Positions 2,585 through 64,000 of a DNA stretch of 64,000 bases are shown piece after piece; the first letter of the stretch is position 1, and every line of letters starts with the position of its first letter. Position numbers and translations under genes: made by a program. The notes beneath the pieces are model-generated. The model was not told the DNA's origin. It saw only the letters and a program-made list of their open reading frames with translations, and did no database searches. Origin of the DNA: Candidatus Kutchimonas denitrificans (lineage in GTDB: Bacteria > Gemmatimonadota > Gemmatimonadetes > Palauibacterales > KS3-K002); the NCBI GenBank assembly GCA_011774835.1, contig JAACAK010000049.1, forward strand, positions 14,114 through 78,113, in the 5' to 3' direction.

Positions 2585-4092
2585 GGCGCGGGCTGCTGGC
2601 TCTACCGCTGCTCCTGGTGGCAACCGGGTGCGGGGACGGCGGGGGGAAGACCGAAACGCCGGTCGCGGAGGAGCGCGTCCCCGGCGAGCCGGTGGTGCCG
2701 CGCCGCGAGACGCCGCCGCGGCCCCCGGAGGTCGTGCCCGACTTCCGTTTGCGCCTCGACCCCGGGACGCACCTGGCCGACGCGCGAATCGAACTCGAGC
2801 TCCCCCGCGCCGAACCGATCCACCTGCTGTTCCGCGCCGAGTGGGGCGGTTATCCCGGCCTCGAGTCGCGCCTCGAGAGCCTCGAGGCATGGGGAGCGAC
2901 CGGGCCACTCGATGTCCGGATGAACGCGGGCGAGCTCGGCGCCGGACATCACATCGTGGAGACCGGAGAGTCGGAGCGGGTCACGATCGCCTACCGGATG
3001 CGGCTGCGGCCGCCCAACTCGTCGCTCCTCTACCACCGCGCGTCACAGCTCGGGCCCTCCGGCGGCCACCTGCTGGGCGGCGACCTGCTCCCCCGGGTCT
3101 GGGTCGGCCGGCCGGGGAACGGGGTTCAGCCGGCCCGCATCTGGTTCACCGGGCTGCCGCCGAACTGGCGGGTCGTCAGCCTCGAGTCCCGGTCGGGCAC
3201 GGGGTACGCGATCCAGGACATCATCTACTCGGTCTTCGTCGTCGGTCCGCTCCGCTCGCAGCGGTTGAACGTCGGTCCGCATACCCTGACCGCGGCGATC
3301 TACGGCGACTGGCCGGTGGATGACCGCCGGGTCATCGACGCGACGAACCGCATCGCTGGCAGCCTGCACCGGATCGCCGGCGACGGCTGGACCGCCGGCG
3401 ACTACTTGCTGGGCGCCGGACGGGTGCCCGCCAGGGTCCCCGGCCTCACCACCGGTGGCCAGGTGATCGGGAACTCCGGCATCGTCTACGTGGGTGGCGC
3501 CGGGCCGCCGGAGCTCGAGTTCCGGCACTGGATGTACACCACGGCCCACGAGCTCACTCACTGGTACATCCCAACGAGCTTCGCCTTCGATGGAGCGGCG
3601 CCCCGCTGGTTCGCCGAAGGGTTCACCGACTATTTCGCCCTCAAGATCCTGCTGGCCGGCGGCTTGATCGAGCCCGAAACGTTCCTCGCCGAGGTGGGCG
3701 CCCGGCTGGCGCGCTACCGGACGAGCCCCCAGTTCGGAACCCGCTCCATCGTCGACGCCGAACGCGACTTCTGGGAGGAGGGGACCTACCGGTTCATCTA
3801 CGACGGCGGCGCCTCCGCCGCCTTCCTTCTCGACCTCGGGTTCCAGGACCGGAGCCGTGCCCTCGAGCAGGCCCTCAAACGGGCGCGCCGCGACCCGCCG
3901 GTCACCTCCGCCCGGCTCGTGGCGGCGCTGTCCCACGTGCCCGAGAACGAATGGCTCGAGGCGTGGCTGACCGACGGCGTCGACCCCGATTGGGACGCCC
4001 GGCTGGCACGCTACCAGTTGACGGTGAGCGGTGAAAAGCTGATCCCCCTCGACGACTGGGCGACCGATGCGCTCTCGACGATCCGACCGTAA
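2581..4092 (+). CDS. Zinc metallopeptidase-like lipoprotein (M61/M1-type HExxH..E)
   Basis: The GTG start overlaps the kinase stop (GTGA). Lipobox LLLVATGC. Motif TAHELTHWYIP followed by WFAEGFTDYF, as in M61/M1 gluzincins. Confidence 0.7.
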   Translation: MRRGLLALPLLLVATGCGDGGGKTETPVAEERVPGEPVVPRRETPPRPPEVVPDFRLRLDPGTHLADARIELELPRAEPIHLLFRAEWGGYPGLESRLESLEAWGATGPLDVRMNAGELGAGHHIVETGESERVTIAYRMRLRPPNSSLLYHRASQLGPSGGHLLGGDLLPRVWVGRPGNGVQPARIWFTGLPPNWRVVSLESRSGTGYAIQDIIYSVFVVGPLRSQRLNVGPHTLTAAIYGDWPVDDRRVIDATNRIAGSLHRIAGDGWTAGDYLLGAGRVPARVPGLTTGGQVIGNSGIVYVGGAGPPELEFRHWMYTTAHELTHWYIPTSFAFDGAAPRWFAEGFTDYFALKILLAGGLIEPETFLAEVGARLARYRTSPQFGTRSIVDAERDFWEEGTYRFIYDGGASAAFLLDLGFQDRSRALEQALKRARRDPPVTSARLVAALSHVPENEWLEAWLTDGVDPDWDARLARYQLTVSGEKLIPLDDWATDALSTIRP

Positions 4093-6289
4093 GGTCGGCC
4101 GCCCCGCCCGGCCCATCGTCCGCGCCGCCTTCGCCGCCATCCTCCTGCTGGTGGCCGCACCGGGACTGGCGGCCCAGGACGTTCTGGAGCTGGCGCGCCA
4201 CCGCCACGCCGAGCCCGACACGACCCTCCAGGACTATCGCGCGAGGCTCAACACGCTGGTCAGCGCCGGCTGGGTGTCCGACCCGCTGGCGCGGCCCCGG
4301 CTGATCATCGCCAGCGAACTGGCATCCCGCGTCGCCTGGCGGCAGGCCGGCGGCCTCCAGGTCCGCATGCTGGGACAGCGCTATGTCACGTCGTTCGGCC
4401 GGGATGTGGAGGCCGGCCTCGATTTCGATGAGCCCTGGTTCGTGGCGACGGTGCCCGGCGACAGCTTGCGCCTGCTGGGCGGTATCGAGCTCCCCAACCG
4501 GGCCGCGGTCCACCCCTTCGCTCCGGGTGCCGCACGCTTCTACAGCTACGAGACCGGCGACACGGTGGCGCTCCTCGTTCCCGGCCGGCGCGTCGACCTG
4601 ATCGAGATCCGCGTCACGCCGACCCGGGGCGATGAGTCGCTGGTCGTCGGCTCGCTCTGGGTCGATGCCGCGACCGGCGACATCGGGGCGATGCAGATCC
4701 GCTTCGTCGGCCGCCCGCTCTGGGCCGACGACGACGATCCCGACGGCCAGAAATGGGCGAACCGCATCCTGTCGCTGAGCGCGGACGTGCAGCAGGGGCT
4801 GTGGGAGGCCCGCTACTGGCTGCCGCATCGCCAGGAGCTGGAGCTGATGGTGCGGATCCCCTTCATCGGGAGATTCGCCGTGCCCATCGTCTTCAAGAAC
4901 GAGTTCGGCGCCTACGACATCAACACCGGGCAACCCATCGAATGGCTGTCCCCCGATTCGCTCCGCGTGGCCGCCGAACCGACCGACGACTACGACGAGG
5001 GCGCCACCCTCTCGCTCCGGGTCGGCGAAGAGCCGCGGCGCGTCTCCGGCCCCGATACGGTCCCCGGCGAGCGTCACTTCCCCGAGCGCGACAGGCTCCA
5101 GGTGCGGGCCGGGCCCGCCGAGCGCGGTTGGGAGATCGTCCGGCCGCCCGACGATTCGCTCCTCGCTTACGACGCCTGGGACCGCCCGCTGGAAGAGCCG
5201 GCGTCCCGGCTGACCTTGCCGTCCACCGAGGAGCTGGAGCGACGGGCCCGCAAGCTCTCCAACGAGATCGTGGGCCGCAAGCTCTTCTCCATCCAGTACG
5301 ACCGGCTGCCCGAGTTCCTGCGCTACAACCGCATCGAGGCGCTGGGCCTGGGCCTCGCCGGTCGCTACGACTTGCCGCGCCGTCCCTTCTGGTCGCTGGG
5401 CGCCGGGGTCGGCTTCGGCGTCGCGGACCTGGCCCTCAAGGGCCGGCTCGACCTCCGCTACGACGCGCCCAGAACGCGCCTCGAGCTCGTCGCCTTCAGC
5501 GAGCTGCACCTGACCGGCGCCCCGCTGACCGACGACAAGCGCGCCTACGGCAAATTCCTGCGCGCCTTGTTCCTGGGCCGCGACGACAACGACTACTACC
5601 GGGCCAGCGGGGCCGCCCTCATCGTGGGCCGGCGCTGGGGCCGGTTCGGTGCCCGGCTGGGCGGCGGCTGGGAGGATCACCGGTCGGTGGACAAGAACAC
5701 CGACATCGCCGTCCCGGGCATCTGGCAGGACACCGTATTCCCGCCCAACCCGCCGGCCGACGAAGGCGGCTTCTGGCGCGGCGACATCGCGGCGACCTAC
5801 TACATCGGTGATTGGACTCGACCCACCGATCGGACCGAGTTCACCGTCGGCCTCGACGTCGGCACCGGCGAAGGCTTCGACTACGCGCAGCCCCGGGCCG
5901 GGCTGGAAGGCCGCCTCGACCTCGGCGACGTGATCGCGGTGGCGTTCGACGCCCGGGCCGGGTGGACGGCCGGTACCGCCCCCCTGCAGCGGCTGTGGGG
6001 GATCGGCGGCCTGGAGACGGTCCGCGGATTCACCTACGGCAGCCTGCGCGGCGACTCGTACTGGCACGCCCAGCTCGAGCTGTCACCGCGGCGCAAGCCG
6101 ATCACGCCGGTCCTGTTCGGCGATGTGGGTTGGGCCGGTGAGACGGGCGACTGGCCAAGCTCGCAGGTCGACCCGCTCTGGTCCGCCGGGATCGGCGTCA
6201 GCTACCTGTGGGGCGTCCTCCGCACCGATCTCGTGTTCCCGAAGTTCGACGACGTCTGGTTCGAGTTCTACTTCGCCGGCGCGCTCTAG
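4067..6289 (+). CDS. Omp85-superfamily (bacterial surface antigen/D15-like) outer-membrane beta-barrel protein
   Basis: Signal peptide ..AAFAAILLLVAAPGLAAQD. C-terminal barrel motifs GGLETVRGFTYGSLRGDSYW, LFGDVGWAG and SAGIGVSYLWGVLRTDLVFP. Overlaps the upstream gene by 26 nt; the exact start is uncertain. Confidence 0.7.
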   Translation: MRSRRSDRKVGRPARPIVRAAFAAILLLVAAPGLAAQDVLELARHRHAEPDTTLQDYRARLNTLVSAGWVSDPLARPRLIIASELASRVAWRQAGGLQVRMLGQRYVTSFGRDVEAGLDFDEPWFVATVPGDSLRLLGGIELPNRAAVHPFAPGAARFYSYETGDTVALLVPGRRVDLIEIRVTPTRGDESLVVGSLWVDAATGDIGAMQIRFVGRPLWADDDDPDGQKWANRILSLSADVQQGLWEARYWLPHRQELELMVRIPFIGRFAVPIVFKNEFGAYDINTGQPIEWLSPDSLRVAAEPTDDYDEGATLSLRVGEEPRRVSGPDTVPGERHFPERDRLQVRAGPAERGWEIVRPPDDSLLAYDAWDRPLEEPASRLTLPSTEELERRARKLSNEIVGRKLFSIQYDRLPEFLRYNRIEALGLGLAGRYDLPRRPFWSLGAGVGFGVADLALKGRLDLRYDAPRTRLELVAFSELHLTGAPLTDDKRAYGKFLRALFLGRDDNDYYRASGAALIVGRRWGRFGARLGGGWEDHRSVDKNTDIAVPGIWQDTVFPPNPPADEGGFWRGDIAATYYIGDWTRPTDRTEFTVGLDVGTGEGFDYAQPRAGLEGRLDLGDVIAVAFDARAGWTAGTAPLQRLWGIGGLETVRGFTYGSLRGDSYWHAQLELSPRRKPITPVLFGDVGWAGETGDWPSSQVDPLWSAGIGVSYLWGVLRTDLVFPKFDDVWFEFYFAGAL

Positions 6290-47811: not shown

Positions 47812-48111
47812 ATGAGTCAATTCGCGATGGCGTCGACGAGCTCAGAGGATGATCCAGACCGCGCCGTGAACTCACGTTCCCGGCGTTTCAGTGTCGTATC
47901 CATCTGCGTGCTCGCCGCTCTCGCGCCGCCAGGCGCGGCGACCGGCCAGGAGGACGGCGTGCCGCCGATCCCGACGGGTATCCCGGTGCTGCTGATCGGG
48001 ATCCTCAAAGAGCCGCCGCCTGGGGTCGCTCGCGTTTTCAGGGTGAGGACCGAGATCGGGCCCGACACCGATGTGGTGCTCGAGATGGGACGCAGCTCAC
48101 CTCGGGAGTGA
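47812..48111 (+). CDS. Hypothetical small secreted protein (weak call)
   Basis: Track ORF that exactly fills the gap between a TATAAT box (47792-47797) and the DinB-like gene. Signal-like FSVVSICVLAALAPPGAATGQ. GC3-rich. No homology recognised. Confidence 0.35.
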   Translation: MSQFAMASTSSEDDPDRAVNSRSRRFSVVSICVLAALAPPGAATGQEDGVPPIPTGIPVLLIGILKEPPPGVARVFRVRTEIGPDTDVVLEMGRSSPRE

Positions 48112-48130
48112 TCGACAGGAGGCCAGAGGT

Positions 48131-48649
48131 ATGTGGCAGCAGATACCATGGATCGAGCGCAAGTTCAGCTTCGATTTCCCCACCGGGCTGTACCCCGAGA
48201 TCATCGTCAGGCTCGCTGGAACACCGGCACGGCTCCGAGAGTTCACCGCGGAGCTGCCGAGCCGCACCCTGGTAAAGCGTCAAGACGACAGCTGGTCGAT
48301 CCAGGAGAACGTCGGGCACCTGCTCGACCTGGAGGACCTGTTCGATGGCCGACTCGACGACTACCAGTCCGGGTCCGATGAGCTGCGGCCCGCCGATATG
48401 TCGAACCGGGCGACGGAGGCGGCGGGCCACAACGACCGGCCCATCGAGGAGCTGCTGCGCGAGTTTCGGCGCCGCCGCGAGGCGATCGTCGAGCGGCTCG
48501 AGGGGTTGCCGCCCGAGGCGTTCGGGCGCTCGGCCTTTCACGCGCGCTTGAGCCTGCAGAAGCGGCTGGTCGACACCTGCTACTTCTTCGCCGAACACGA
48601 CGACCACCACATCGCTCGTATCGTCGACCTCATTCACGAGCACGCGTGA
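48131..48649 (+). CDS. DinB-family (DinB_2/DUF664-like) metal-dependent protein
   Basis: Trimmed to ATG 48131 (AGGAGG upstream). ..WSIQENVGHLLDLE.. and C-terminal ..FFAEHDDHHIARI.. give the His triad pattern of DinB-fold proteins. Confidence 0.75.
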   Translation: MWQQIPWIERKFSFDFPTGLYPEIIVRLAGTPARLREFTAELPSRTLVKRQDDSWSIQENVGHLLDLEDLFDGRLDDYQSGSDELRPADMSNRATEAAGHNDRPIEELLREFRRRREAIVERLEGLPPEAFGRSAFHARLSLQKRLVDTCYFFAEHDDHHIARIVDLIHEHA

Positions 48650-48655
48650 GGCCGG

Positions 48656-49210
48656 CTACCACGACTGGGTGCCAGGTTCACCCTTCCAGGGGCCAATGAT
48701 CTCCCACGTGACCCAGCCGCCGTAGAAATCGCCGCCCTGCGGCTTCACTCGCTCGCCGTCCACGTAGCATTCGACCCGGCCCGGATAGAACGAGACGTGG
48801 CCGGCGATGGCCTCATAGCCGGCCCACGGCTCCGGGTAGCCCCAGGCCGCCTCGGACACCTCGGTATCTCCCACCCACACCGACCAGTACCTGGCCCGTC
48901 CCTTCCACTCGCAGAGCGAGGAGCGGTCCGCCGGCTCGAGGTGCTCCATGCGGACGTCGTCGGGCGGCAGATAGAAGGCCGGCGGACTGGCGGTCTCCAG
49001 AACCCGGAACGTGTTCCGCGTTTCGGCGATACTGGTTCCGGCGCAAACAACTCGCACGAGCCGCGCATCGGGCTCGACCCGGGGCGGCCGCGGATAGTCC
49101 CACACCGATTCCTGCCCCGGCCCGGGCTCCTCGGCGAAGTCGGGCCGGCGGTCCCCCCTGTAGTTCCACTTCTCTCGCAAGCGCTGGATGCCGGGTGGCA
49201 GATCGTTCAT
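48656..49210 (-). CDS. DUF427-domain protein
   Basis: ..ETASPPAFYLPPDDV..CEWKGRARYWSV..AWGYPEP..HVSFYP matches the DUF427 pattern. Confidence 0.75.
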   Translation of the reverse strand: MNDLPPGIQRLREKWNYRGDRRPDFAEEPGPGQESVWDYPRPPRVEPDARLVRVVCAGTSIAETRNTFRVLETASPPAFYLPPDDVRMEHLEPADRSSLCEWKGRARYWSVWVGDTEVSEAAWGYPEPWAGYEAIAGHVSFYPGRVECYVDGERVKPQGGDFYGGWVTWEIIGPWKGEPGTQSW

Positions 49211-49304
49211 GATTCATGCTCTCCTGCTCGTCGGCCCGGGCGTCTGGGAATCACACGACGCGACCGGTGGACGCTCCGCAGCCTGTCTCGATGCGTGTCC
49301 CGAG

Positions 49305-49312
49305 ATTATAAT
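49305..49312. promoter_or_regulatory. Palindromic ATTATAAT box in the divergent DUF427/glycosidase intergenic region (possible -10 on both strands)
   Basis: ATTATAAT is its own reverse complement and contains TATAAT on each strand. It is the only AT-rich octamer in this 183-nt gap. Confidence 0.3.
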
Positions 49313-49393
49313 CAGCCCGACCGAGGACAAAACCCGCGCGGCCACATCCCATCTCGACTGACCGGACGCCATCGTTCGGGGAGCTTGCCCAAG

Positions 49394-52024
49394 ATGCTGA
49401 GAACCACACTGCTGGCGCTCGTTCCCATGGCCATGATGCCCTGGACCGGGGTCGACGTCCGGGCGCAGGGCGTGCCCAAGTTCGACATCGAGGTCAGCTC
49501 GATCCAGCTGGAGGGCATCGCCCGGCCCGGCGTCTACCTGGGTGGCGTGGGCCGCGAGGCCGCGTTCTTCGGCGCCGAGACCGGCGCCTTCGAAGCGTGG
49601 GCCTGGCCGGTGAAACTGCTCCACGATTTCGAGCTGAGCTTCAAGATCCCCGACTACAGCGAGCCCATACCGGGCGCCAGCGTCGCCCGGCGCGTTATCG
49701 TGCGGCCCGAGCTCCAGACCGTGGTCTACTCGCACGCCACGTTCACGGTGAAGCAGCACATCCTGGTCCCGCTCCACGAACCGGGGGTCATCGTGCTGCT
49801 CGATGTCGACGCGGTCCGCCCGCTGGAGATCGTCGCCTCGTTCCACGCCGACCTCGACCTCATGTGGCCGGCGGGAATCGGCGGCCAGTACGCTTTCTGG
49901 TGGGCGGACCGAAATCGCTTCCTGCTCTCCGAGAGCCGCCGCGAATACAACGGATACGTCGGGTCACCGTTCGCCCACGAAGGCTCGACCCATCCGGCCC
50001 ATGCGGCGCCCGACGCACCGTCGGTCTTCAGGGTCACCGTCGATGACGAAGTCGTGAGCTCGCGCTTCATCCCGATCGTCATCGCGGGCGGCGTCATGCC
50101 GCGCGATTCACTCGAACTCATCTACGAGCGACTGCTCGGGGACGCCGAGGCCTACTATAAGGAGCGGCTCGAGCACGGCCGCCACCTCCGCGAGGACCTC
50201 GCGTCGGTCCAGACGCCCGATACGATCCTCGATCTGGCGCTCGAGTGGGCAAAGGTGAACCTGGACGGCTCGCTCGCCTGCAACCCCGATCTGGGCTGCG
50301 GCATGGTCGCCGGCTACGGGCCGTCGGGTCGCGGCCGTCGGCCGGGCTTCGGCTGGTTTTTCGGCGGCGACGCCTCGATCAACGCCCTGGGGATCACCCC
50401 CTACGGCGATTTCGATCTCGTCCGCGCGGGGCTCGACTTCCAGCGACGCAACCGTCGGGACGACGGAAAGATGCCCCACGAGGTCACCCAGTCGGCGATG
50501 CGGACGCGGAAGGACTGGTTCACCGAGTTCCCTTACGCGTACTACCACGCCGACACCACCCCGTACTGGCTCGTCGCGCTCTGGAGCTACTGGTTGCAGT
50601 CCGCCGATACCGCCTTCGTCCGCGACAGCTGGGAGGGCGTCCGGGCGGCCTATGACTGGTGCGTGGAGCACGACAGCGACGGTGATCGGATCGTCGACAA
50701 CACCGCCGGCGGCCTGGGGGCTATCGAGGTGGGCGGACTGGGCGAGTCGCTGCACCAGGACATCTACCTGGCGGCGGTATCGGTCCAGAGCCTGCGCGCC
50801 GTCTCCGAGCTGGCCGGGGCGCTGGGCGCCAGCGAACTGGCCGCTGAGGCCGATCGCTACTATGAGGAAGCGCGGACAAACTTCCAGCGCGAGTATTACG
50901 TCGAAGACCTCGATGCTTACGCCTTTGGCATCCTGCAGGGCGGCCACACCAACCCGGCGATGACGGTCTGGCCGGCCACCGCTGGGTCGTTCGGGCTGCT
51001 CGAGCCCCGGCACGCCCGGAGGAACCTCGACGCCTTCGCCTCCCACCGTATGGCCACCGATTGGGGGACGCGCATCCTGTCCAGCGAGCACGAGCTGTAC
51101 GACCCGCTCCACTACAACAACGGGGCGGTTTGGGGGTTCGTCACCGGCTTCGCCGGCTGGGCGCTCTTCAACTACGATCGGCCACACGCCGGCTTCGCGG
51201 CGCTCTGGGCCAACGCCCGATCGACCTTCTATGACGCGCTGGGCCGAAACCCGGAGCTGCAGTCCGGCGCTTTTCGGCGCACCCTGGACACCACGGTGCC
51301 GCACCAGTTCTTCGCGACCAGCATGATTCCGACACCGCTCCTCCGCGGCCTCTTCGGCCTGGAGGCGGACGCGCCGCGTGCAACGCTCGCCTTCGCCCCG
51401 CGCTTGCCCGCCGACTGGAACTGGGCGAAGGTGCGGAACTACCCGGTGGGCGAGGATCGGGTCGACATCGAGATTTACAGCAACGTGAGGCTTCGCACCG
51501 ACGCCGACGGCGACACGGCACGACTGTTTCAAGCAAACTTCCGGCCCGGCAAACAGGATAGCCGACTTCGAGTGCGCTTCGCGCCGCGCCTCCCGCCGGG
51601 ATCGGAGGTCGTCCGGATCGAGGTGGACCGGGAAGCCGTCGAATTCGAGCAGTCCCGCGGCCGTCACGCCACCGGCGTGAGCCTCGACGCCATCGAGGCG
51701 ACCCACGGCGCCTCCGTCGACGTCTGGTATCGACCCGGTGTCGCCGTGGCGCCGCGCCGGCCGCGGCCCCTGGAGGGGGAAGCGTCCGACGACGTGAGGA
51801 TCATCGACTACAGCTACGACGGCGAGGACGGCGTGTACACGCTCCGCGTCGAGGGGCGCGCCGGACGGACCTATACGATCCAGCTGATCAGCACGGCGGA
51901 CGCGCCCCGGGACGTCCGCGGCGCGCAGCTGAGCGAAGCCGGGGCGGGCCGCTACATTCTGACCGTAGCCATCGATGAGGACGCCGGGTGGCACGCTCGC
52001 GAGATCCGCTTCCGCAAACCGTAG
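49394..52024 (+). CDS. Secreted (alpha/alpha)6-barrel glycosidase-like protein (glycogen-debranching/amylo-alpha-1,6-glucosidase GDE_C-like)
   Basis: Track ORF 48797..52024, trimmed to ATG 49394 (signal MLRTTLLALVPMAMMPWTGVDVRAQG). Core AGYGPSGRGRRPGFGWFFGGDASINAL, DDGKMPHE, TTPYWL, DGDRIVDN, YNNGAVWGF. Confidence 0.75.
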   Translation: MLRTTLLALVPMAMMPWTGVDVRAQGVPKFDIEVSSIQLEGIARPGVYLGGVGREAAFFGAETGAFEAWAWPVKLLHDFELSFKIPDYSEPIPGASVARRVIVRPELQTVVYSHATFTVKQHILVPLHEPGVIVLLDVDAVRPLEIVASFHADLDLMWPAGIGGQYAFWWADRNRFLLSESRREYNGYVGSPFAHEGSTHPAHAAPDAPSVFRVTVDDEVVSSRFIPIVIAGGVMPRDSLELIYERLLGDAEAYYKERLEHGRHLREDLASVQTPDTILDLALEWAKVNLDGSLACNPDLGCGMVAGYGPSGRGRRPGFGWFFGGDASINALGITPYGDFDLVRAGLDFQRRNRRDDGKMPHEVTQSAMRTRKDWFTEFPYAYYHADTTPYWLVALWSYWLQSADTAFVRDSWEGVRAAYDWCVEHDSDGDRIVDNTAGGLGAIEVGGLGESLHQDIYLAAVSVQSLRAVSELAGALGASELAAEADRYYEEARTNFQREYYVEDLDAYAFGILQGGHTNPAMTVWPATAGSFGLLEPRHARRNLDAFASHRMATDWGTRILSSEHELYDPLHYNNGAVWGFVTGFAGWALFNYDRPHAGFAALWANARSTFYDALGRNPELQSGAFRRTLDTTVPHQFFATSMIPTPLLRGLFGLEADAPRATLAFAPRLPADWNWAKVRNYPVGEDRVDIEIYSNVRLRTDADGDTARLFQANFRPGKQDSRLRVRFAPRLPPGSEVVRIEVDREAVEFEQSRGRHATGVSLDAIEATHGASVDVWYRPGVAVAPRRPRPLEGEASDDVRIIDYSYDGEDGVYTLRVEGRAGRTYTIQLISTADAPRDVRGAQLSEAGAGRYILTVAIDEDAGWHAREIRFRKP

Positions 52025-56482: not shown

Positions 56483-59107
56483 TCAACCCCAGCCCGACTC
56501 CACGAGAGCCAGTATTGTTAGCGCGGTCGACCACGCCTGGTCGGCGGTCACGCCGATGCTGCGGGGCTCGTCGCCGTGAAGGACCTCGGGCCAGGCGCCC
56601 AGCGAGTGGATCCTGTACAGCCCCGCCAGCCCCTCGGCGTGGCGCCCGGCCGATTCGGCCCGAGCCGCCCGGGCCTCGGCCAGGCTCACCCACCCGGTGA
56701 ACAGCGGCCAGATCGAGCCGCCATGGTAGGCATCGGGCCGATAGTCGGGATCGGAGCGGGGGAGCAGCCGCACGCCCCAGGGCGCCGTGAAGTCGTCCGA
56801 CGCGACCCGGTCGAGCCACGACTCGCAGCGTTCCGCCCGTACCGCGCCCAGCAGCAAGGGAACCGCGGTCATCGCGGTCTCGGCCGTGTTGAGCGACCCG
56901 TCGGCTCTGCGTCCGTGCGCGTAACGGCCGGCGATGGGGTCGAAGAAGGAGAGCTCCAGGCTGGCCCGTGCGGCGGCCGCCCGGTAAGCGATCTCGCCGG
57001 CGAGCTCGGCGTGACCGAGGGACCGGGCGGCCGTCTCGAGCTCGCTCAGCGCCGCCGTCCACACGCCCGCCAGGTAGAGCGAAACGTGGTGGCCGCCAAG
57101 GCGGCCGAACTCGATCCAGCCGTGACCGACCCCGGTGTTCTCGATCAGCCCGTCGCCGTCGCTGTCGGTGGTGAGGCAAAACCGGTAGGCCTTCACGATC
57201 CGCGGCCACTCACGATCGAGGGTCTCCCGGTCACCCGTGGCCAGCAGATAGCGAGCGGCCAAAAGCAAATAGAGCGGGGTGGAATCGGCCGCATCGTAGT
57301 GCACCACGCCGCTGGTCGTGCATTCGTGGGGGATCTGGCCCGTCAGGTCCTGGTGGCGACCGAGGAACTCGAGGACCTCCCGAACCGCGTCGGCCTGGCC
57401 GACGGCCAAACATGCGAGCGCCGTCCAGCAGGCATCCCGTCCGAAGTACCAGCCGTAACCGGGCCGCCCATCGCCGAAGGCGCCCGGCCCCGATCTTCCA
57501 TATCCGGCGACCAGCGACGTGCCGACTCCCGGAACCGTGACACGATAGGTGGACAATCGCCACTTCGCCCACTCCAGCGCCGCCGCCACCTCCGGATCAC
57601 CCTTCACCGGTCCGGCCCGCGCCTCGCGCTGCAGGCGCCGCGCCTCCAACCGTTCCGCCCTCCAGGCCGCCGCCGCTGCCCGCGACGCGGGAAGCTCTTC
57701 GGCCCTGGTCGAAGCCAGCAACAGAAAACGGACCGGACCGGAAATCTCCAGCTCGGCCTCCAGCCGGACCCGGCTCCGGCCACTGTCCGAAGCGTCCACG
57801 ACCCTCAGCTCCGCCGGTGCCGGGTCGATCCGCAGCCCCAGCCACTCGCCGGTCTCCGCCTGCACCCCCACCGCGCCATCCGCCAGCCGGTACGACAACC
57901 GCCCGGTCGCCTCTGGCGGATACGGCCACATCGGACGCAGGTCCCCCTCGGTGCTCCAGGCGACCCGCACCGCCCCATCGGTGGGCGCCAACTCGAGAAG
58001 CAAGGCCGGCTGGGACGGCGCTACGGTCGTGCGCTCCACGAGCCCTCGACCATCGACGGTCATCTTGCGGGTGATCACGCCTGGCTCGATGCGGAACCAC
58101 GTCGCCACAACATCGTTGCGGTCCCTCCCCTGCAGCCGCCAGCGGCTGACGGCCCGGAACGGATGGAACCACACCTCCTCCGGTCCGCTCCGCTCCGACC
58201 CGGCCAGCAGGGCACGGGCGCCCGCCAGAGTGAATTCCACGTCGGAGGCCGCACGCTCCAGCGCCAGCTCGCCTTCATCCGTCTCGAACGCGTCGCCCGG
58301 CTCGAGCTCCGGCGGAAGCGGCACCGCGCTGTCGGGCTCCAGGCCAGCCACGGGGCGACGCCACGCGCCGCCCAGCAATCGGGCCCGGCCCCCGTTCGGC
58401 GCGACGCGGTAGAGCGCGTTCGAGATCAGACACTCGAGGTGGGGCCGATAGCGGGATGAGCGGGCACCGAAGTTGACGTAGCCGCCGATGCACAGCGCCC
58501 AACCGTCGCCGACCATGTACTCCCAGGCCAGCCGCCGCTCCGGGTTCATCGAGATGTACGAGCGCTCGACCGCGATGACCCGGCCCCGCAGCGGCCAGAC
58601 TTCATCCGCATAGCCCCAACGGACGAAGCGCTCGCCCGCCTTCGGCGACCAGAGATAGACCCCGCTGCCCAGACCCTCGAACAGCGGATGGCCCCGGAAG
58701 CTCTGCAGTCCCCGAATCCGATGGACCTGGCTGAAGCTCTCCGCCGCCTCGTCCGCGGCGTCCGGGCTCCAGGGCCCCTCGTGCTTGTCGTTCGGCCCGA
58801 TCTCCTCCCAGCCCAGCGCGACGGGCAAGCCCGCCGCGGCCAGCGTGGCCAGCGCTCCACCGCCGGCCCGGACGTGGGCGTCCAGCGCCAGCCGGATCGA
58901 ATCCCGCAGCCGCGGCGGCTCGACCCAGTGGAACCAGACCACGGCCTCCGGACCCTCCAACGCCTGGGGGAGATCGGACAACGGAACGCAGCGCACATCG
59001 AACGACGTCTGCTCTTCCAGCCAGACCCGAGCGGCCGACGTCTCCCGGGACGCGCCGGCGTCCGGCAGGACGAAGAGGATCTTCAGGCTCTCCCGCATAC
59101 GCTCCAC
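56483..59107 (-). CDS. Amylo-alpha-1,6-glucosidase/glycogen-debranching-enzyme-like (GDE_C) protein with an N-terminal ThuA/GATase1-like region
   Basis: VAGYGRSGPGAFGDGRPGYGWYFGRDACW, GQIPHE, DSTPLYLLLAARY, DGDGLIEN, YHGGSIWPLFTGW, ADQAWSTA. Confidence 0.82.
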   Translation of the reverse strand: MERMRESLKILFVLPDAGASRETSAARVWLEEQTSFDVRCVPLSDLPQALEGPEAVVWFHWVEPPRLRDSIRLALDAHVRAGGGALATLAAAGLPVALGWEEIGPNDKHEGPWSPDAADEAAESFSQVHRIRGLQSFRGHPLFEGLGSGVYLWSPKAGERFVRWGYADEVWPLRGRVIAVERSYISMNPERRLAWEYMVGDGWALCIGGYVNFGARSSRYRPHLECLISNALYRVAPNGGRARLLGGAWRRPVAGLEPDSAVPLPPELEPGDAFETDEGELALERAASDVEFTLAGARALLAGSERSGPEEVWFHPFRAVSRWRLQGRDRNDVVATWFRIEPGVITRKMTVDGRGLVERTTVAPSQPALLLELAPTDGAVRVAWSTEGDLRPMWPYPPEATGRLSYRLADGAVGVQAETGEWLGLRIDPAPAELRVVDASDSGRSRVRLEAELEISGPVRFLLLASTRAEELPASRAAAAAWRAERLEARRLQREARAGPVKGDPEVAAALEWAKWRLSTYRVTVPGVGTSLVAGYGRSGPGAFGDGRPGYGWYFGRDACWTALACLAVGQADAVREVLEFLGRHQDLTGQIPHECTTSGVVHYDAADSTPLYLLLAARYLLATGDRETLDREWPRIVKAYRFCLTTDSDGDGLIENTGVGHGWIEFGRLGGHHVSLYLAGVWTAALSELETAARSLGHAELAGEIAYRAAAARASLELSFFDPIAGRYAHGRRADGSLNTAETAMTAVPLLLGAVRAERCESWLDRVASDDFTAPWGVRLLPRSDPDYRPDAYHGGSIWPLFTGWVSLAEARAARAESAGRHAEGLAGLYRIHSLGAWPEVLHGDEPRSIGVTADQAWSTALTILALVESGWG

Positions 59108-59963: not shown

Positions 59964-60041
59964 AACCCTCACTCCAGACATGAGAATACCTGGCACCACC
60001 AACGGGTGAATGCCAGGTATCGCCGTGAAAAAGGTCCGCCG

Positions 60042-60551
60042 TCAGTGACGGGAGTAGACTTGCGTCCGGCCCTCTTCGTCGAACGTCAGGACGTTGTACC
60101 GGTCCTTCCGACCGCTCGGACTCTCCATCCCCGGTGAACCCGCCGGCATCCCCGGCACCGTCAGCCCCACGAAGTCCGGCCTCTCTTCGAGAAGCCGCCG
60201 GATGTCAGCCGCCGGCACGTGCCCTTCGATCACGTAGCCATCGACCAGCGCCGTATGGCACCCGGCGAGCTCCTCGTCCAGGCCGTAGCGCTGCTTCGTA
60301 CCCCTCAGCTCGGCCGAGCTGACGTCCACCGGGTCGACCGTGAACCCCTCGCTGCGCAGGTGACCCACCCACGCCTCGCAACAGCCTCAAGTCGGTGTCT
60401 TGTAGACCGTCACCACAGGACCGCTATCCAGGTTCGCGTCCGGCGCCCCTTCCCCTCCCAACAGCAGGGCCCCGGCGACCACGCCGACACCCACCAGGGC
60501 ACCGGCGGCCAGGATCGCTTTCAGTTCCTTTCCCACTCGTCGCACCTCCAT
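60042..60551 (-). CDS. CopG/DUF411-family metal-binding protein interrupted by one in-frame TGA at the first Cys of CxCC (candidate selenoprotein, or nonsense pseudogene)
   Basis: ATG 60551 (or GTG 60536 with GGAGG upstream) ..AILAAGALVGVGVVAGALLL..PVVTVYKTPT-TGA(60389-60387)-GCCEAWVGHLRSEGF..CHTALVDGYVIEGHVPAADIRRLL..GLTVPGMPAGSPGME.. 510 nt in one frame with no other stop. Confidence 0.6.
60353..60380 (-). other. SECIS-like hairpin 6 nt downstream of the in-frame UGA
   Basis: UGCGAGG-CGUGGGUGGGUCA-CCUGCGCA forms a 7-bp stem with one bulged G, extendable by G-C/G-U pairs. The G-rich apical loop starts 17 nt after the UGA. Confidence 0.4.
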
Positions 60552-60710
60552 ATGCGCGGCTGATCGTCGATCTCGTTTCGGCGAATCTCGAGGGCACGGC
60601 CAGTGGATGCAAGCGGCCCTTGCCGAAGAAAACCCGAAACCCTATACTGGATCCTCGGCGACCCGGCCTGGCGCCGCTCGCCCGAGCCTGACAGCCGGCC
60701 AAGGAGGCGC

Positions 60711-62133: not shown

Positions 62134-64000
62134 TCACAGCTCGACCCGCAGCGGTTCCCCGACAGCCGAATCCGCGGTCCGCTCGCCGTCCACGGACACA
62201 GCGAACCGTCCCGCATCGATTTCGATCTCGATCCGCCGACCGCGGAAGGGGAGTTCCGAGAGGCGCAGCGAGTCGAGTTCGAACGGGAAGGGGTCGACGA
62301 CAAACCTATCACCGCCCAACGGCCGGAATCCCGCCACGTATTTGACCAGCAGGTCGACGACCCAGGAGTGCTGGTAGTCGTCGAACCCGCGGTAGAGAGA
62401 GGGGCGGCCGGTGTCCGGGCTGTAATGTTCGTAGCAGTTGGGCCGCCCGAGGTCGCCGTCGTGAAACATCATACGAACGAACTTTCGGACGAGCTCGACG
62501 ACGCGCTCGCGGAGACCCGGGTCTTGGCGGATCGCCGCCGTCGCCAGCGCCTCCACGATGTGCGAGTTGGTCATCGGCCAGACCCGGCCGTTCCACGGGC
62601 AGTTGTGCCGTTTCCCCTTCCATTCAGCGTCCGGACTGTAGTAAGGGTCATCGGCGCTGGTCGAGGGGACGGGATAGACGGTCCAGAACTCCGCCGGGTT
62701 GAGCAGGTGGGCGCGCAGCCCTTCGACGTGGTCGGCGTCGGCCAGGTCGGTGAAGTACGGGTAGAAGCAGACCGCCGCTTTGACCCCGGTTCGACGCATT
62801 GTGCGCGGGTCGACATCGGAGAACATGCCGGTCTCGCCGTCCCACATCAGATCGCGGATCGCGGTGCCGGTCCGGTCGGCGGCGGCGGTCCAGCGACCCG
62901 CGGCGGAGCCGTCGTCGATCCGCGCGGCGATCTCGGCCAGAGCCCGCTGCAGCCGATAAGCGTAGACCGTCGCGTCGATGCCCTTCAACCGGATGAGGTT
63001 ACCCCAGGTCTCGCTGTCCGCCTCGGGGCTCACCGCCATGTAGCGGCTCATGTACTCCTGACCGGTCTCGTAGTGATCGATCACGTCGTAGAGGCCGCTC
63101 TCCTCACGGTCACGCTGCCGATCGAGCCACTCGGCATAGCGCGACAGCGGCTCGTAGACCGCGCGCAGGTAGGCGTCGTCCGGGTGTACCCGATCGACGG
63201 CCAGAACGGCGTCGCCCCAATTCGCGAAGTAGAAGTCGGTGTGCGCCAGGTGGTTCACGTAGATGCGCCCGTGGAGCTGGCCGCTCTCCTTCTGGTGCGC
63301 GAGGATGTTGAGGAGGCAGCCGCGCGCTCGGTCCGGCTGGGAAAGCCAGCGGGTTTCCCGAGCTTGGCATTGCGCGCTATAGGCGATGGGCACGTGGAAG
63401 TAGCCGGTCCCCTCGCAGCAGCCGGGGTAGACATGGTTGCCGATGCCCCCCTCGTGGCTGCAGAGATTCAACCCGTACCAGCGGTAGTACCAGAAGCGCT
63501 CGAAGAATTTGTCCGAACAGTCGAGGCCGGGCACGCCATCCAGGAAGCGACTCCAACTGGCACGGCTCGCCGCTCCGGGCTCGGCCCCCGGCGCCGGACG
63601 CCGGGGCTCGGCCCGCCGCTTGGGCGGCGCATGCCCCCGGATGACCGTCGCCAGGGGGCTGCTCATCTGCGGAGCGGGCAGCCCGGTGGGCCGCAGACGC
63701 GCCTGGGCTCTCAGCGTGGCCGTGCCCCGGGCCGGAACGCTGACCGGGGTGGCCACGGCGGCGTAGAGCACGCCCCGCGGACTCACCCCGTCGACCTGCA
63801 CCGCCGTCACCGGCCCACGTCGCCACTTGTCTGGAAAAGGGGTGAGCTCCCAGCGCGGGCCGTCGGCAACGCCTTCTGACAGCAGCGCACTGCCGGCCAC
63901 TCCGCCGTCGGGCGCCTCCAAAGTCACCTGCACCGCCAGCCGGTGCACGTGCCGGTCCTGCAGCGTGTGGCTGAACGACACCGAGCCCGCCGCCGCCTGG
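62134..64000 (-). CDS. GH63-like (MGH1/trehalase-like) (alpha/alpha)6 glycoside hydrolase; N-terminus runs off the window
   Basis: ..LHGRIYVNH..FYFANWGDA..YETGQEY..KGIDATVYAY..WDGETGMFSD..FYPYFT..YWRGRVW-type CPWNGRVWPMTNSHIVEAL. The frame stays open past GTG 63981 to nt 64000. Confidence 0.8.
   Translation of the reverse strand, partial: QAAAGSVSFSHTLQDRHVHRLAVQVTLEAPDGGVAGSALLSEGVADGPRWELTPFPDKWRRGPVTAVQVDGVSPRGVLYAAVATPVSVPARGTATLRAQARLRPTGLPAPQMSSPLATVIRGHAPPKRRAEPRRPAPGAEPGAASRASWSRFLDGVPGLDCSDKFFERFWYYRWYGLNLCSHEGGIGNHVYPGCCEGTGYFHVPIAYSAQCQARETRWLSQPDRARGCLLNILAHQKESGQLHGRIYVNHLAHTDFYFANWGDAVLAVDRVHPDDAYLRAVYEPLSRYAEWLDRQRDREESGLYDVIDHYETGQEYMSRYMAVSPEADSETWGNLIRLKGIDATVYAYRLQRALAEIAARIDDGSAAGRWTAAADRTGTAIRDLMWDGETGMFSDVDPRTMRRTGVKAAVCFYPYFTDLADADHVEGLRAHLLNPAEFWTVYPVPSTSADDPYYSPDAEWKGKRHNCPWNGRVWPMTNSHIVEALATAAIRQDPGLRERVVELVRKFVRMMFHDGDLGRPNCYEHYSPDTGRPSLYRGFDDYQHSWVVDLLVKYVAGFRPLGGDRFVVDPFPFELDSLRLSELPFRGRRIEIEIDAGRFAVSVDGERTADSAVGEPLRVEL

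Follow-up and report, generated by a model that had tools for sequence, protein, structure and literature searches.

Can a TGA codon that interrupts a copper-protein gene in frame be read as selenocysteine (Sec)? The question is raised by a gene of the CopG/DUF411 family on contig JAACAK010000049.1 of Candidatus Kutchimonas denitrificans (Gemmatimonadota), in a stretch of 64,000 nucleotides (nt) hereafter named the window. The evidence gathered here makes us confident that this gene is a Sec-form of a CopG-family copper protein, in which Sec replaces the first Cys of the C-x-C-C motif. Such a UxCC selenoprotein (U being Sec) had been proposed in a first-pass annotation of the window, and each of the tests named there that was run supported it. 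The elements on which the argument bears are the following.

60042..60551, minus strand: complete CopG/DUF411 gene of 169 codons when its in-frame UGA is read through, with TGA at 60044-60042 as stop codon.
60453..60551, minus strand: putative signal for export, or membrane anchor, at the N-terminus (residues 1-33), basic and then AILAAGALVGVGVVAGALLLGG (from hydropathy and a model helix at 6-22).
60387..60389, minus strand: the in-frame TGA, which would encode selenocysteine as residue 55 and aligns with the first Cys of the CopG C-x-C-C.
60378..60389, minus strand: U-G-C-C motif, residues 55-58, readable as UxxC too (from alignment and model).
60354..60374, minus strand: apical hairpin resembling a selenocysteine insertion sequence (SECIS), GCGUGGGUG-GGU-CACCUGCGC, with a perfect 9-bp stem and a 3-nt loop at 60365-60363.
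60341..60389, minus strand: extended predicted structure, from the UGA through lower stems that are weakly supported (65% of cells paired).
60126..60269, minus strand: core DUF411 Pfam match, residues 95-142, including C98-H99, H111 and M135-x6-M142.

Recomputing the minus-strand frame from ATG 60551 to the stop codon gave 169 codons (510 nt) with no frameshift and TGA 60389-60387 as sole internal stop, as first described. The frame is thus open from that ATG, which had been taken as the start, but the true start codon may instead be GTG 60536, judging from a GGAGG at 60549-60545, 8 nt upstream of it. Around the TGA the window reads GPVVTVYKTPT-TGA-GCCEAWVGHLRSEGF, the residues after it beginning GCCEAWVGHL. 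An automatic open reading frame (ORF) caller breaks the gene into two pieces, 60387..60551 (54 aa) and 60042..60368 (108 aa, GTG start), and the public protein record P0001 (108 aa) is exactly the second of them, in agreement with the earlier remark that the 60042..60368 ORF is a GTG-started fragment. Four of the best 120 database homologues are exactly 108 aa long. TGA is the ordinary stop codon in the window, where it ends 24 of 41 coding-like ORFs.

With a Cys put at the TGA, the translated protein matched PF04214 (DUF411) at 94.9 bits, for a cut-off of 27 (E=2.3e-27); a glutaredoxin Pfam match over residues 47-81 was weak and sub-threshold. We aligned it with 21 full-length Cys-form homologues, i.e. 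proteins having a Cys at the position in question. They display the block V-Y-K-(S/T)-P-T-C-G-C-C-x-x-W, much as it had been given beforehand (with T or S before the first Cys), without any variation at K, at the CC pair or at W. The TGA falls on the first Cys of the motif, as had been claimed: positions 2-4 (G-C-C) are present, and position 1 is TGA where the family has TGY. The structure of Pseudomonas aeruginosa CopG (PDB 6WIS/6WJE), aligned over residues 47-167 (E=4.9e-30), likewise has the first Cys of its C-G-C-C aligned to the TGA. Elsewhere in the alignment, M135-x6-M142, C98-H99 and E109-G-H-V-P113 are invariant or nearly so, and the methionine pair corresponds to M120-x6-M127 of CutG, a copper-ligand pair. 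An AlphaFold2 model had a predicted local distance difference test score (pLDDT) above 90 over residues 45-169. Searched with Foldseek, it matched 6WJE/6WIS with E=2e-15, a template modelling (TM) score of 0.90 and a root-mean-square deviation of 1.6 A; the next matches, thioredoxins and glutaredoxins, were much weaker. In this model strand beta1 spans residues 46-51 and the loop T-P-T-U-G residues 52-56, just ahead of helix alpha1 which starts at C57. Residue 55 is therefore predicted to cap the N-terminus of helix alpha1, the place of the attacking Cys in the CxxC of thioredoxin folds.

We then examined whether this TGA has been kept by other species. Two close orthologues, L001 (76% identity, VYKTPT-TGA-GCCEAW) and L002 (73% identity, VYKTPT-TGA-GCCEQW), have intact frames on both sides of the TGA and keep the radical-SAM or GH116-like genes that neighbour the gene in the window. 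The ORF layout of the window recurs at a third 108-aa homologue, from JGI. One genome per GTDB species was scanned with the DNA pattern TWY-AAR-N9-TGA-GGN-TGY-TGY-N6-TGG, which retrieved at least 120 loci (L003-L122). Among the matches listed, about 100 of 120 hold an intact DUF411 gene, so that at least some 100 species have the TGA at the same codon. These TGA-forms have 110-117 open codons after the TGA, containing C-H-T, E-G-H-V-P and P-G-M-P-x-G-S-P-G-M. The statistics below mostly bear on 98 genes among the matches listed, those with at least 100 open codons downstream. The remaining loci, about 20 of 120, were chance pattern matches with short ORFs and were set aside; the cultured isolates among the listed scan matches were all of this kind.

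Carriers among the matches listed belong to Acidobacteriota/Vicinamibacterales (about 37), Gemmatimonadota (21), Chloroflexota (19), Rokubacteria/Methylomirabilota (6) and Burkholderiales (6), with single ones in Myxococcota, Binatia, Nitrospinaceae, Tectomicrobia, Verrucomicrobiia, Desulfuromonadales and Pseudomonadales. They include the closed Vicinamibacterales chromosomes OY759970.1, OY760734.1, OZ220736.1, OZ253576.1 and OY760136.1. In a joint tree with 100 Cys-forms, the nearest neighbour of a TGA-form was another TGA-form in 98% of cases, and TGA-forms grouped in taxon-coherent clades down to roughly 50-60% identity, which indicates that the TGA codon was kept through long divergence. 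About 10 switches between Sec and Cys are enough to explain this tree (a crude neighbour-joining one). The window gene groups with metagenome-assembled genomes (MAGs) of Gemmatimonadota, among them L110 (69% identity), with which it has a downstream GH116-like gene in common. All nearest relatives of the window protein are TGA-forms (69-76% identity), and the best Cys-forms reach about 59-66%; close relatives with TGC and identical flanks, the situation that had been named as speaking against Sec, were not found.

Two further observations were made on the distribution of the family. The Vicinamibacterales contig CBDBMZ010000003.1 (L065 and L099) bears two TGA-form DUF411 genes 4.3 Mb apart. 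A full-length DUF411 gene from JGI (L123, 3524-4000; protein P0002, JGI 3300041079) has TTA (Leu) at the TGA position and keeps a SECIS-like hairpin. TTA, a codon seldom used in GC-rich genomes, differs from TGA by a single base, and the gene could be either a derivative of a Sec-form or the product of a base-call error.

In bacteria, insertion of Sec is normally directed by a hairpin within the coding region. In the window, a hairpin follows the UGA, as had been noticed at once; it is real, with a perfect 9-bp stem, but its apical loop begins 21 nt past the UGA, and not 17 nt as then stated. The consensus for bacterial SECIS elements (bSECIS) is a loop of 3-9 nt on a stem of 4-16 bp, a G in the first two loop positions, a distance of 16-37 nt from UGA to loop, and a minimum free energy (MFE) of at most -7.5 kcal/mol (PMC13188914). 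The window hairpin lies within these bounds on all four counts: its loop is GGU, its stem has 9 bp, the spacing is 21 nt, and the hairpin by itself folds at -12.3 kcal/mol. Its outer pairs reach back to the UGA. Over 66 nt the MFE is -32.8 kcal/mol (z = -2.6 relative to dinucleotide shuffles), and over 57 nt it is -25.4 kcal/mol, compared with -18.5 +/- 2.8 kcal/mol for synonymous recodings of the same gene (p ~0.01).

Since such a stem could partly arise passively from the peptide W-V-x-H-L written in GC-rich codons, we built a matched control by searching metagenomes with the same DNA pattern, TGY replacing TGA, which gave 100 true Cys-form genes. TGA-forms had a best perfect stem of 7.3 bp on average, compared with 5.1 bp for Cys-forms (p = 2e-18), and 76% of the former, against 17% of the latter, had a stem of at least 7 bp. 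When the comparison was restricted to genes with the context GCCxxW[VI]xHL and a GC content of at least 0.62, the means were 7.7 and 5.2 bp respectively. Loops started mostly at +20 to +24 in TGA-forms, and were scattered in Cys-forms; a G was found in loop positions 1-2 for 84% and 48% of them, respectively. A strict bSECIS model was passed by 45 of the 98 TGA-forms and by 2 of the 100 Cys-forms, and a syntenic Cys-form has no stem at the SECIS site. These measures of a specific hairpin are far more discriminating than the MFE over 54 nt, for which the z score relative to synonymous recoding within the gene was -0.51 in TGA-forms (p = 1e-4) and -0.17 in Cys-forms (p = 0.06), a significant yet weak effect.

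Selection on the hairpin was also looked for at the nucleotide level. Within clades, the codons forming it showed an excess of synonymous identity of +0.15 in TGA-forms (6/6 clades), compared with +0.02 in Cys clades; in the window's own clade, synonymous identity was 0.92 in the hairpin codons and 0.66 elsewhere. A Leu is present at +10 in 93-94% of TGA-forms and 44% of Cys-forms, and its CUN codon, in the 3' arm, pairs with the UGG of the Trp. At least three hairpin classes, with loops of 3, 7 and 9 nt and differing sequences, occupy the same place. Covariation in orthologues, which had been suggested as a check, was partly borne out. L002 has compensatory changes in the stem (GCG/CGC to CAG/CUG), and within the hairpin class of the window double changes were seen at 6 pairs, against 3.4 in shuffles (0/500), a count limited by the selection of this set on invariant inner pairs. 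In the same class, 73.6% of cells were paired, and 40-48% when the partner was slid.

The position of the TGA within the gene has a consequence for the protein. An in-frame start followed by a hydrophobic signal is found upstream of the TGA in 96% of TGA-forms, in 0-1% when the other two frames are read, and at the equivalent place in 90% of Cys-forms. In the window protein, the N-terminus upstream of the UGA includes a 13-residue stretch with a mean Kyte-Doolittle hydropathy of 2.6. Hydropathy and model together indicate that the export-signal feature of CopG is present, as a basic n-region and a 22-residue hydrophobic stretch. We propose from these features that the protein is periplasmic, or membrane-anchored and facing outwards. 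Given that the export signal and beta1 precede the UGA, with the remainder of the domain behind it, a working protein needs read-through.

Evidence that a carrier decodes Sec came from the gene neighbourhoods. A systematic scan for other genes with an in-frame TGA gave 63 candidates, most of them DUF411 itself or arginine/serine-rich antisense frames. In L042, from the Vicinamibacterales MAG CAYZKQ010000163.1, a DUF3179 gene (PF11376, E = 3.6e-86) about 3 kb from the TGA-form DUF411 gene has a TGA at W-U-P-L-C and a hairpin of its own. DUF3179 UxxC/T is already catalogued as a predicted selenoprotein family (PMC13188914), and this Sec-form is therefore independent evidence that at least one carrier of a TGA-form decodes Sec. 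The gene lies directly before that of a CPx-type P-type ATPase (reverse complement, about 3030-4013 and 4016-6194 respectively), and DUF3179, DUF411 and the ATPase could make up a small Sec-rich cluster for metal handling.

Among the alternatives to Sec insertion, the one that survives best, though we regard it as unlikely, is that the UGA is read through with a standard amino acid, by a near-cognate tRNA (Trp, Cys or Arg) or by some other recoding stimulated by the hairpin. Downstream structures can stimulate generic read-through, a similar hairpin is kept in some Cys-forms, and no Sec machinery was found in the 64-kb window. Several facts speak against such a mechanism: the recoded codon sits exactly on the invariant metal or redox Cys, in a classic Sec/Cys pair; the geometry of the hairpin is specifically that of bSECIS elements, with loops at 17-21 nt and the enrichment in G-containing loops reported above; and, in L042, one TGA-form gene adjoins a gene of a catalogued selenoprotein family that has a UGA and a hairpin of its own. 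Moreover, inefficient near-cognate decoding is unlikely to persist when a single mutation to TGC or TGT would fix it.

It is less probable still, and in our view very unlikely, that the UGA is a true stop, with a short N-terminal peptide made first and a cytoplasmic DUF411 domain re-initiated separately, for instance at GTG 60368, and retaining two motif residues only. The window has that GTG 18 nt past the TGA, and 68 of the 98 TGA-forms have an in-frame NTG within 15 codons; in 30% of them, however, no possible restart codon exists over this distance. Re-initiation would also split the export signal from the domain, and its product would lack two parts of the fold that matches CopG at 1.6 A, namely beta1 and the first motif residue. 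Finally, the V-Y-K-S/T-P-T segment (beta1) ahead of the TGA is conserved equally to or more than in Cys-forms.

A recent TGC-to-TGA nonsense mutation, making the gene a pseudogene in this genome, was the alternative offered by the first-pass annotation. One base change suffices for it, gene callers yield a truncated gene, as does the public record, and the Sec machinery is not seen in the 64-kb window. It is nevertheless effectively refuted, because at least some 100 species in at least six phyla, L001 and L002 included, keep the TGA at the same codon, with both halves undecayed and conserved at the protein level; the nearest relatives are all TGA-forms, and the 510 nt of the window gene hold no other stop or frameshift. 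As for a base-call or assembly error at 60387, conceivable from the window alone, it is of negligible probability given the TGA in independent assemblies from various studies and platforms (Logan, JGI, NCBI MAGs, closed long-read chromosomes).

Several results weigh against the proposal that the gene encodes a Sec-form of CopG, and are gathered here. First, no SelA, SelB or SelD was found among the 37 window ORFs by Pfam annotation, and tRNA-Sec was found neither in the 64-kb window nor in any of 106 orthologue loci. The latter absence is uninformative, because selC is rarely linked to selenoprotein genes. A tblastn search for selA, selB and selD with approximate E. coli queries, over 1.76 Mb of flanks, returned only a weak GTPase match, at a Cys-form locus. 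Second, the hairpin is not exclusive to TGA-forms, as the 17% of Cys-forms with a stem of at least 7 bp indicate, and the peptide W-V-x-H-L, written with GC-rich codon usage, accounts for part of the stem. In particular, the closest Cys-forms (L244 366-863 and L245 1501-2001, about 65% identity) have a stem of 6-7 bp with a G-containing loop; this stem may have been inherited from a Sec-encoding ancestor, or it may result from the W-V-E-H-L codons. Third, only the 45 TGA-forms mentioned above satisfy the strict model, which allows no bulge; covariation in the formal sense is no more than moderate, as the 5 inner pairs are invariant; and family-wide, synonymous conservation showed no excess in the hairpin codons (0.51 vs 0.49). 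A synonymous signal restricted to clades fits the existence of several hairpin classes. Fourth, no copper-resistance gene (cop, cus) was found across the 64-kb window, to which the DUF411 gene could be linked. Linkage to cop genes is frequent in the CopG/DUF411 family, yet is no condition of membership. Cys-forms lie near P1B-ATPases, multicopper oxidases, CusA/B/C and regulators in roughly 5-10% of cases each, and of these neighbours TGA-forms share the CPx P-type ATPase only (8/98); no gene neighbourhood is conserved among TGA-forms beyond lineage-local synteny. The copper role of the window protein is taken from homology alone. Last, all genuine TGA-form carriers listed are MAGs, and hence give no experimental handle yet.

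How might a Sec-form of CopG be made and work? On reaching the UGA at 60389-60387, the ribosome would meet a complex of SelB and Sec-tRNA(Sec) recruited by the hairpin whose loop lies 21 nt downstream, Sec would be inserted, and translation would proceed into the thioredoxin-like domain. The N-terminal signal, synthesised ahead of the UGA, would export the full-length chain, and in the folded protein Sec55, C57, C58 and M135/M142 would form a copper site. By homology with P. aeruginosa CopG, this site would hold a multinuclear copper cluster and interconvert Cu(I) and Cu(II), with a selenolate as a softer, more nucleophilic ligand or redox centre, of lower pKa than a thiolate. We infer that Sec and not another residue is inserted, that SelB recognises the hairpin, that copper is bound, and that selenium brings an advantage. 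Two papers citing the primary work on CopG (PMC7558416, PMC8456105) describe CopG-like proteins as periplasmic, as contributing to copper resistance under anaerobic conditions, and as binding a tetranuclear copper cluster via CxCC and two methionines, with Cu(I)/Cu(II) oxidoreductase activity; cluster and activity are known only for the P. aeruginosa protein.

Going one step further, Sec55 might be a bridging selenolate of the multinuclear copper cluster, the first natural copper-selenium site in a protein. Sec-forms would then be a functionally distinct, long-lived CopG subfamily, largely uncoupled from the classical cop/cus operons and with a housekeeping role in the periplasm, either as a redox buffer for Cu(I)/Cu(II) or as a copper-thiol oxidoreductase. 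This extension is tentative, and we give it somewhat less than an even chance. We know of no natural copper-selenolate site described in a protein, the Sec-metal pairings known to us being with Mo, W and Ni, and to our knowledge CopG is the sole member of its family with a solved copper cluster.

Comparison with known systems helps to situate the window protein. With CopG/CutG (DUF411; 6WIS/6WJE) it shares family, fold, export signal, the x-G-C-C, Met-x6-Met and C-H motifs and E-G-H-V-P, and it differs by the TGA (Sec) in place of the first motif Cys. Cys-forms of CopG/CutG are often in clusters with cop, cus or multicopper oxidase genes, and in Proteobacteria; TGA-forms are mostly outside such clusters, and mainly in Acidobacteriota, Gemmatimonadota and Chloroflexota. 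Sequence features would make the TGA-form a thioredoxin-fold UxxC selenoprotein of a well-known type, with Cys homologues and a SECIS in the coding region. As in thioredoxin, glutaredoxin, DsbA-like and Prx-like selenoproteins (PMC13188914, Table 1), Sec would replace the N-terminal helix-capping Cys, the SECIS hairpin lies just downstream within the coding region, and Cys homologues are abundant. Unlike theirs, the U-G-C-C motif of the window protein has an extra Cys, and in the Cys homologue this motif ligates a copper cluster rather than just cycling a disulfide. Predicted metal-handling selenoproteins also have Sec at a putative soft-metal Cys (DUF3179 UxxC/T, E1-E2 cation ATPase UxxC, CopZ-like GxUC/CU, SO_0444 Cu/Zn efflux UxC, YHS-domain GxU, MerT-like), but they belong to other folds and families, and none has a solved Cys homologue bearing a multinuclear copper cluster. 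Lastly, Sec is a metal ligand in formate dehydrogenase (Mo/W) and in [NiFeSe] hydrogenase (PMC1088965). In the window protein it would likewise ligate a redox-active metal directly, except that this metal would be copper and the protein a small, periplasmic, thioredoxin-like one.

TGA-form DUF411 appears to be a widespread selenoprotein family that has escaped cataloguing. A literature search never paired DUF411 or COG3019 with selenoproteins, and its matches for CopG with selenocysteine were irrelevant. The main text of a May 2026 catalogue of 119 prokaryotic selenoprotein families (PMC13188914) has no entry for DUF411, PF04214, CopG or UxCC, and DUF411/CopG goes unmentioned in the BSepDB, deep-Sep, Sargasso Sea and Global Ocean Sampling (GOS) papers. 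No model of NCBIfam release 20 (June 2026) matches the window protein. Within the literature and databases searched, the earlier statement that DUF411/CopG lies outside the described selenoprotein families therefore holds. On the Sec trait in Gemmatimonadota, Acidobacteriota and Chloroflexota, the literature search gave nothing phylum-specific.

If the family is real, the prokaryotic selenoproteome gains a member present in at least some 100 species and six or more phyla, carried by dominant and poorly cultured lineages of soil and groundwater in which selenium use is little documented. As every public record seen is truncated to at most 108 aa, annotation pipelines mis-call the whole subfamily, and a family model would repair the truncated annotation of TGA-form DUF411 genes. 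The set also provides about 100 new examples of bacterial SECIS elements, in at least three hairpin classes and from phyla beyond the usual training sets. A natural Sec variant of CopG is, in addition, a direct experiment on the effect of selenium in a copper site. Should Sec55 indeed be a copper ligand, the selenium and copper cycles would be linked in phyla of soil, groundwater and sludge (Vicinamibacterales, Gemmatimonadota, Chloroflexota, Rokubacteria).

We finally describe the surroundings of the gene. One more feature overlaps its end.

60026..60051, minus strand: terminator-like hairpin over the stop codon, followed by a T-run (consensus scan only).

This overlap with the stop codon suggests that the DUF411 gene is monocistronic. 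Just past the terminator-like hairpin lies a perfect 10-bp inverted repeat, ATACCTGGCA / TGCCAGGTAT, at 60011-60020 and 59986-59995 with a 15-nt spacer. The neighbours of the gene are a divergent radical-SAM gene and GH116/MGH1-like hydrolases, and Pfam annotation found ABC transporters, a Pst/PhoU system and regulators elsewhere in the window. Three paralogous GH116/MGH1-like genes are present within 16 kb, at 48650-52024 (plus strand), 56483-59107 (minus) and 62134-63981 (minus); a GH116-like gene adjoins DUF411 in L001, L110 and the Cys-form locus L246 as well. Rfam gave no match at the gathering threshold in the window, and a permissive scan of 60200-60600 returned noise only.

No other selenoprotein gene was found in the window by the in-frame-TGA scan. 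A second in-frame TGA, at 48647-48649 (plus strand), was considered as part of a large selenoprotein resembling formate dehydrogenase and rejected: in the region 48047-52024 (plus strand) a DinB_2-family gene stops at this TGA, and a separate GH116/MGH1-like gene follows in the same frame by coincidence. Likewise, the candidate of L081 proved to be a stop/start overlap between two ABC-transporter genes, and no selenoprotein. In L007 (Vicinamibacterales OY759970.1), a TGA at about 4089 lies within the S-x-x-G-A-x-G-L-M-Q-L-M-P of an SLT-type lytic transglycosylase, devoid of Cys context, and is probably an error or the mark of a pseudogene. In L019, from the Rokubacteria MAG JACPCW010000027.1, an ORF for a beta-propeller of the BNR/Sortilin-Vps10/F510_1955-like type has an in-frame TGA at about 3948 (reverse complement), in NPDCF-U-GWKMVGG. 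About 12-18 nt past this TGA comes a hairpin, GUGGGC-GGUCU-GCCCAC, and the ORF may be a candidate for another undescribed selenoprotein.

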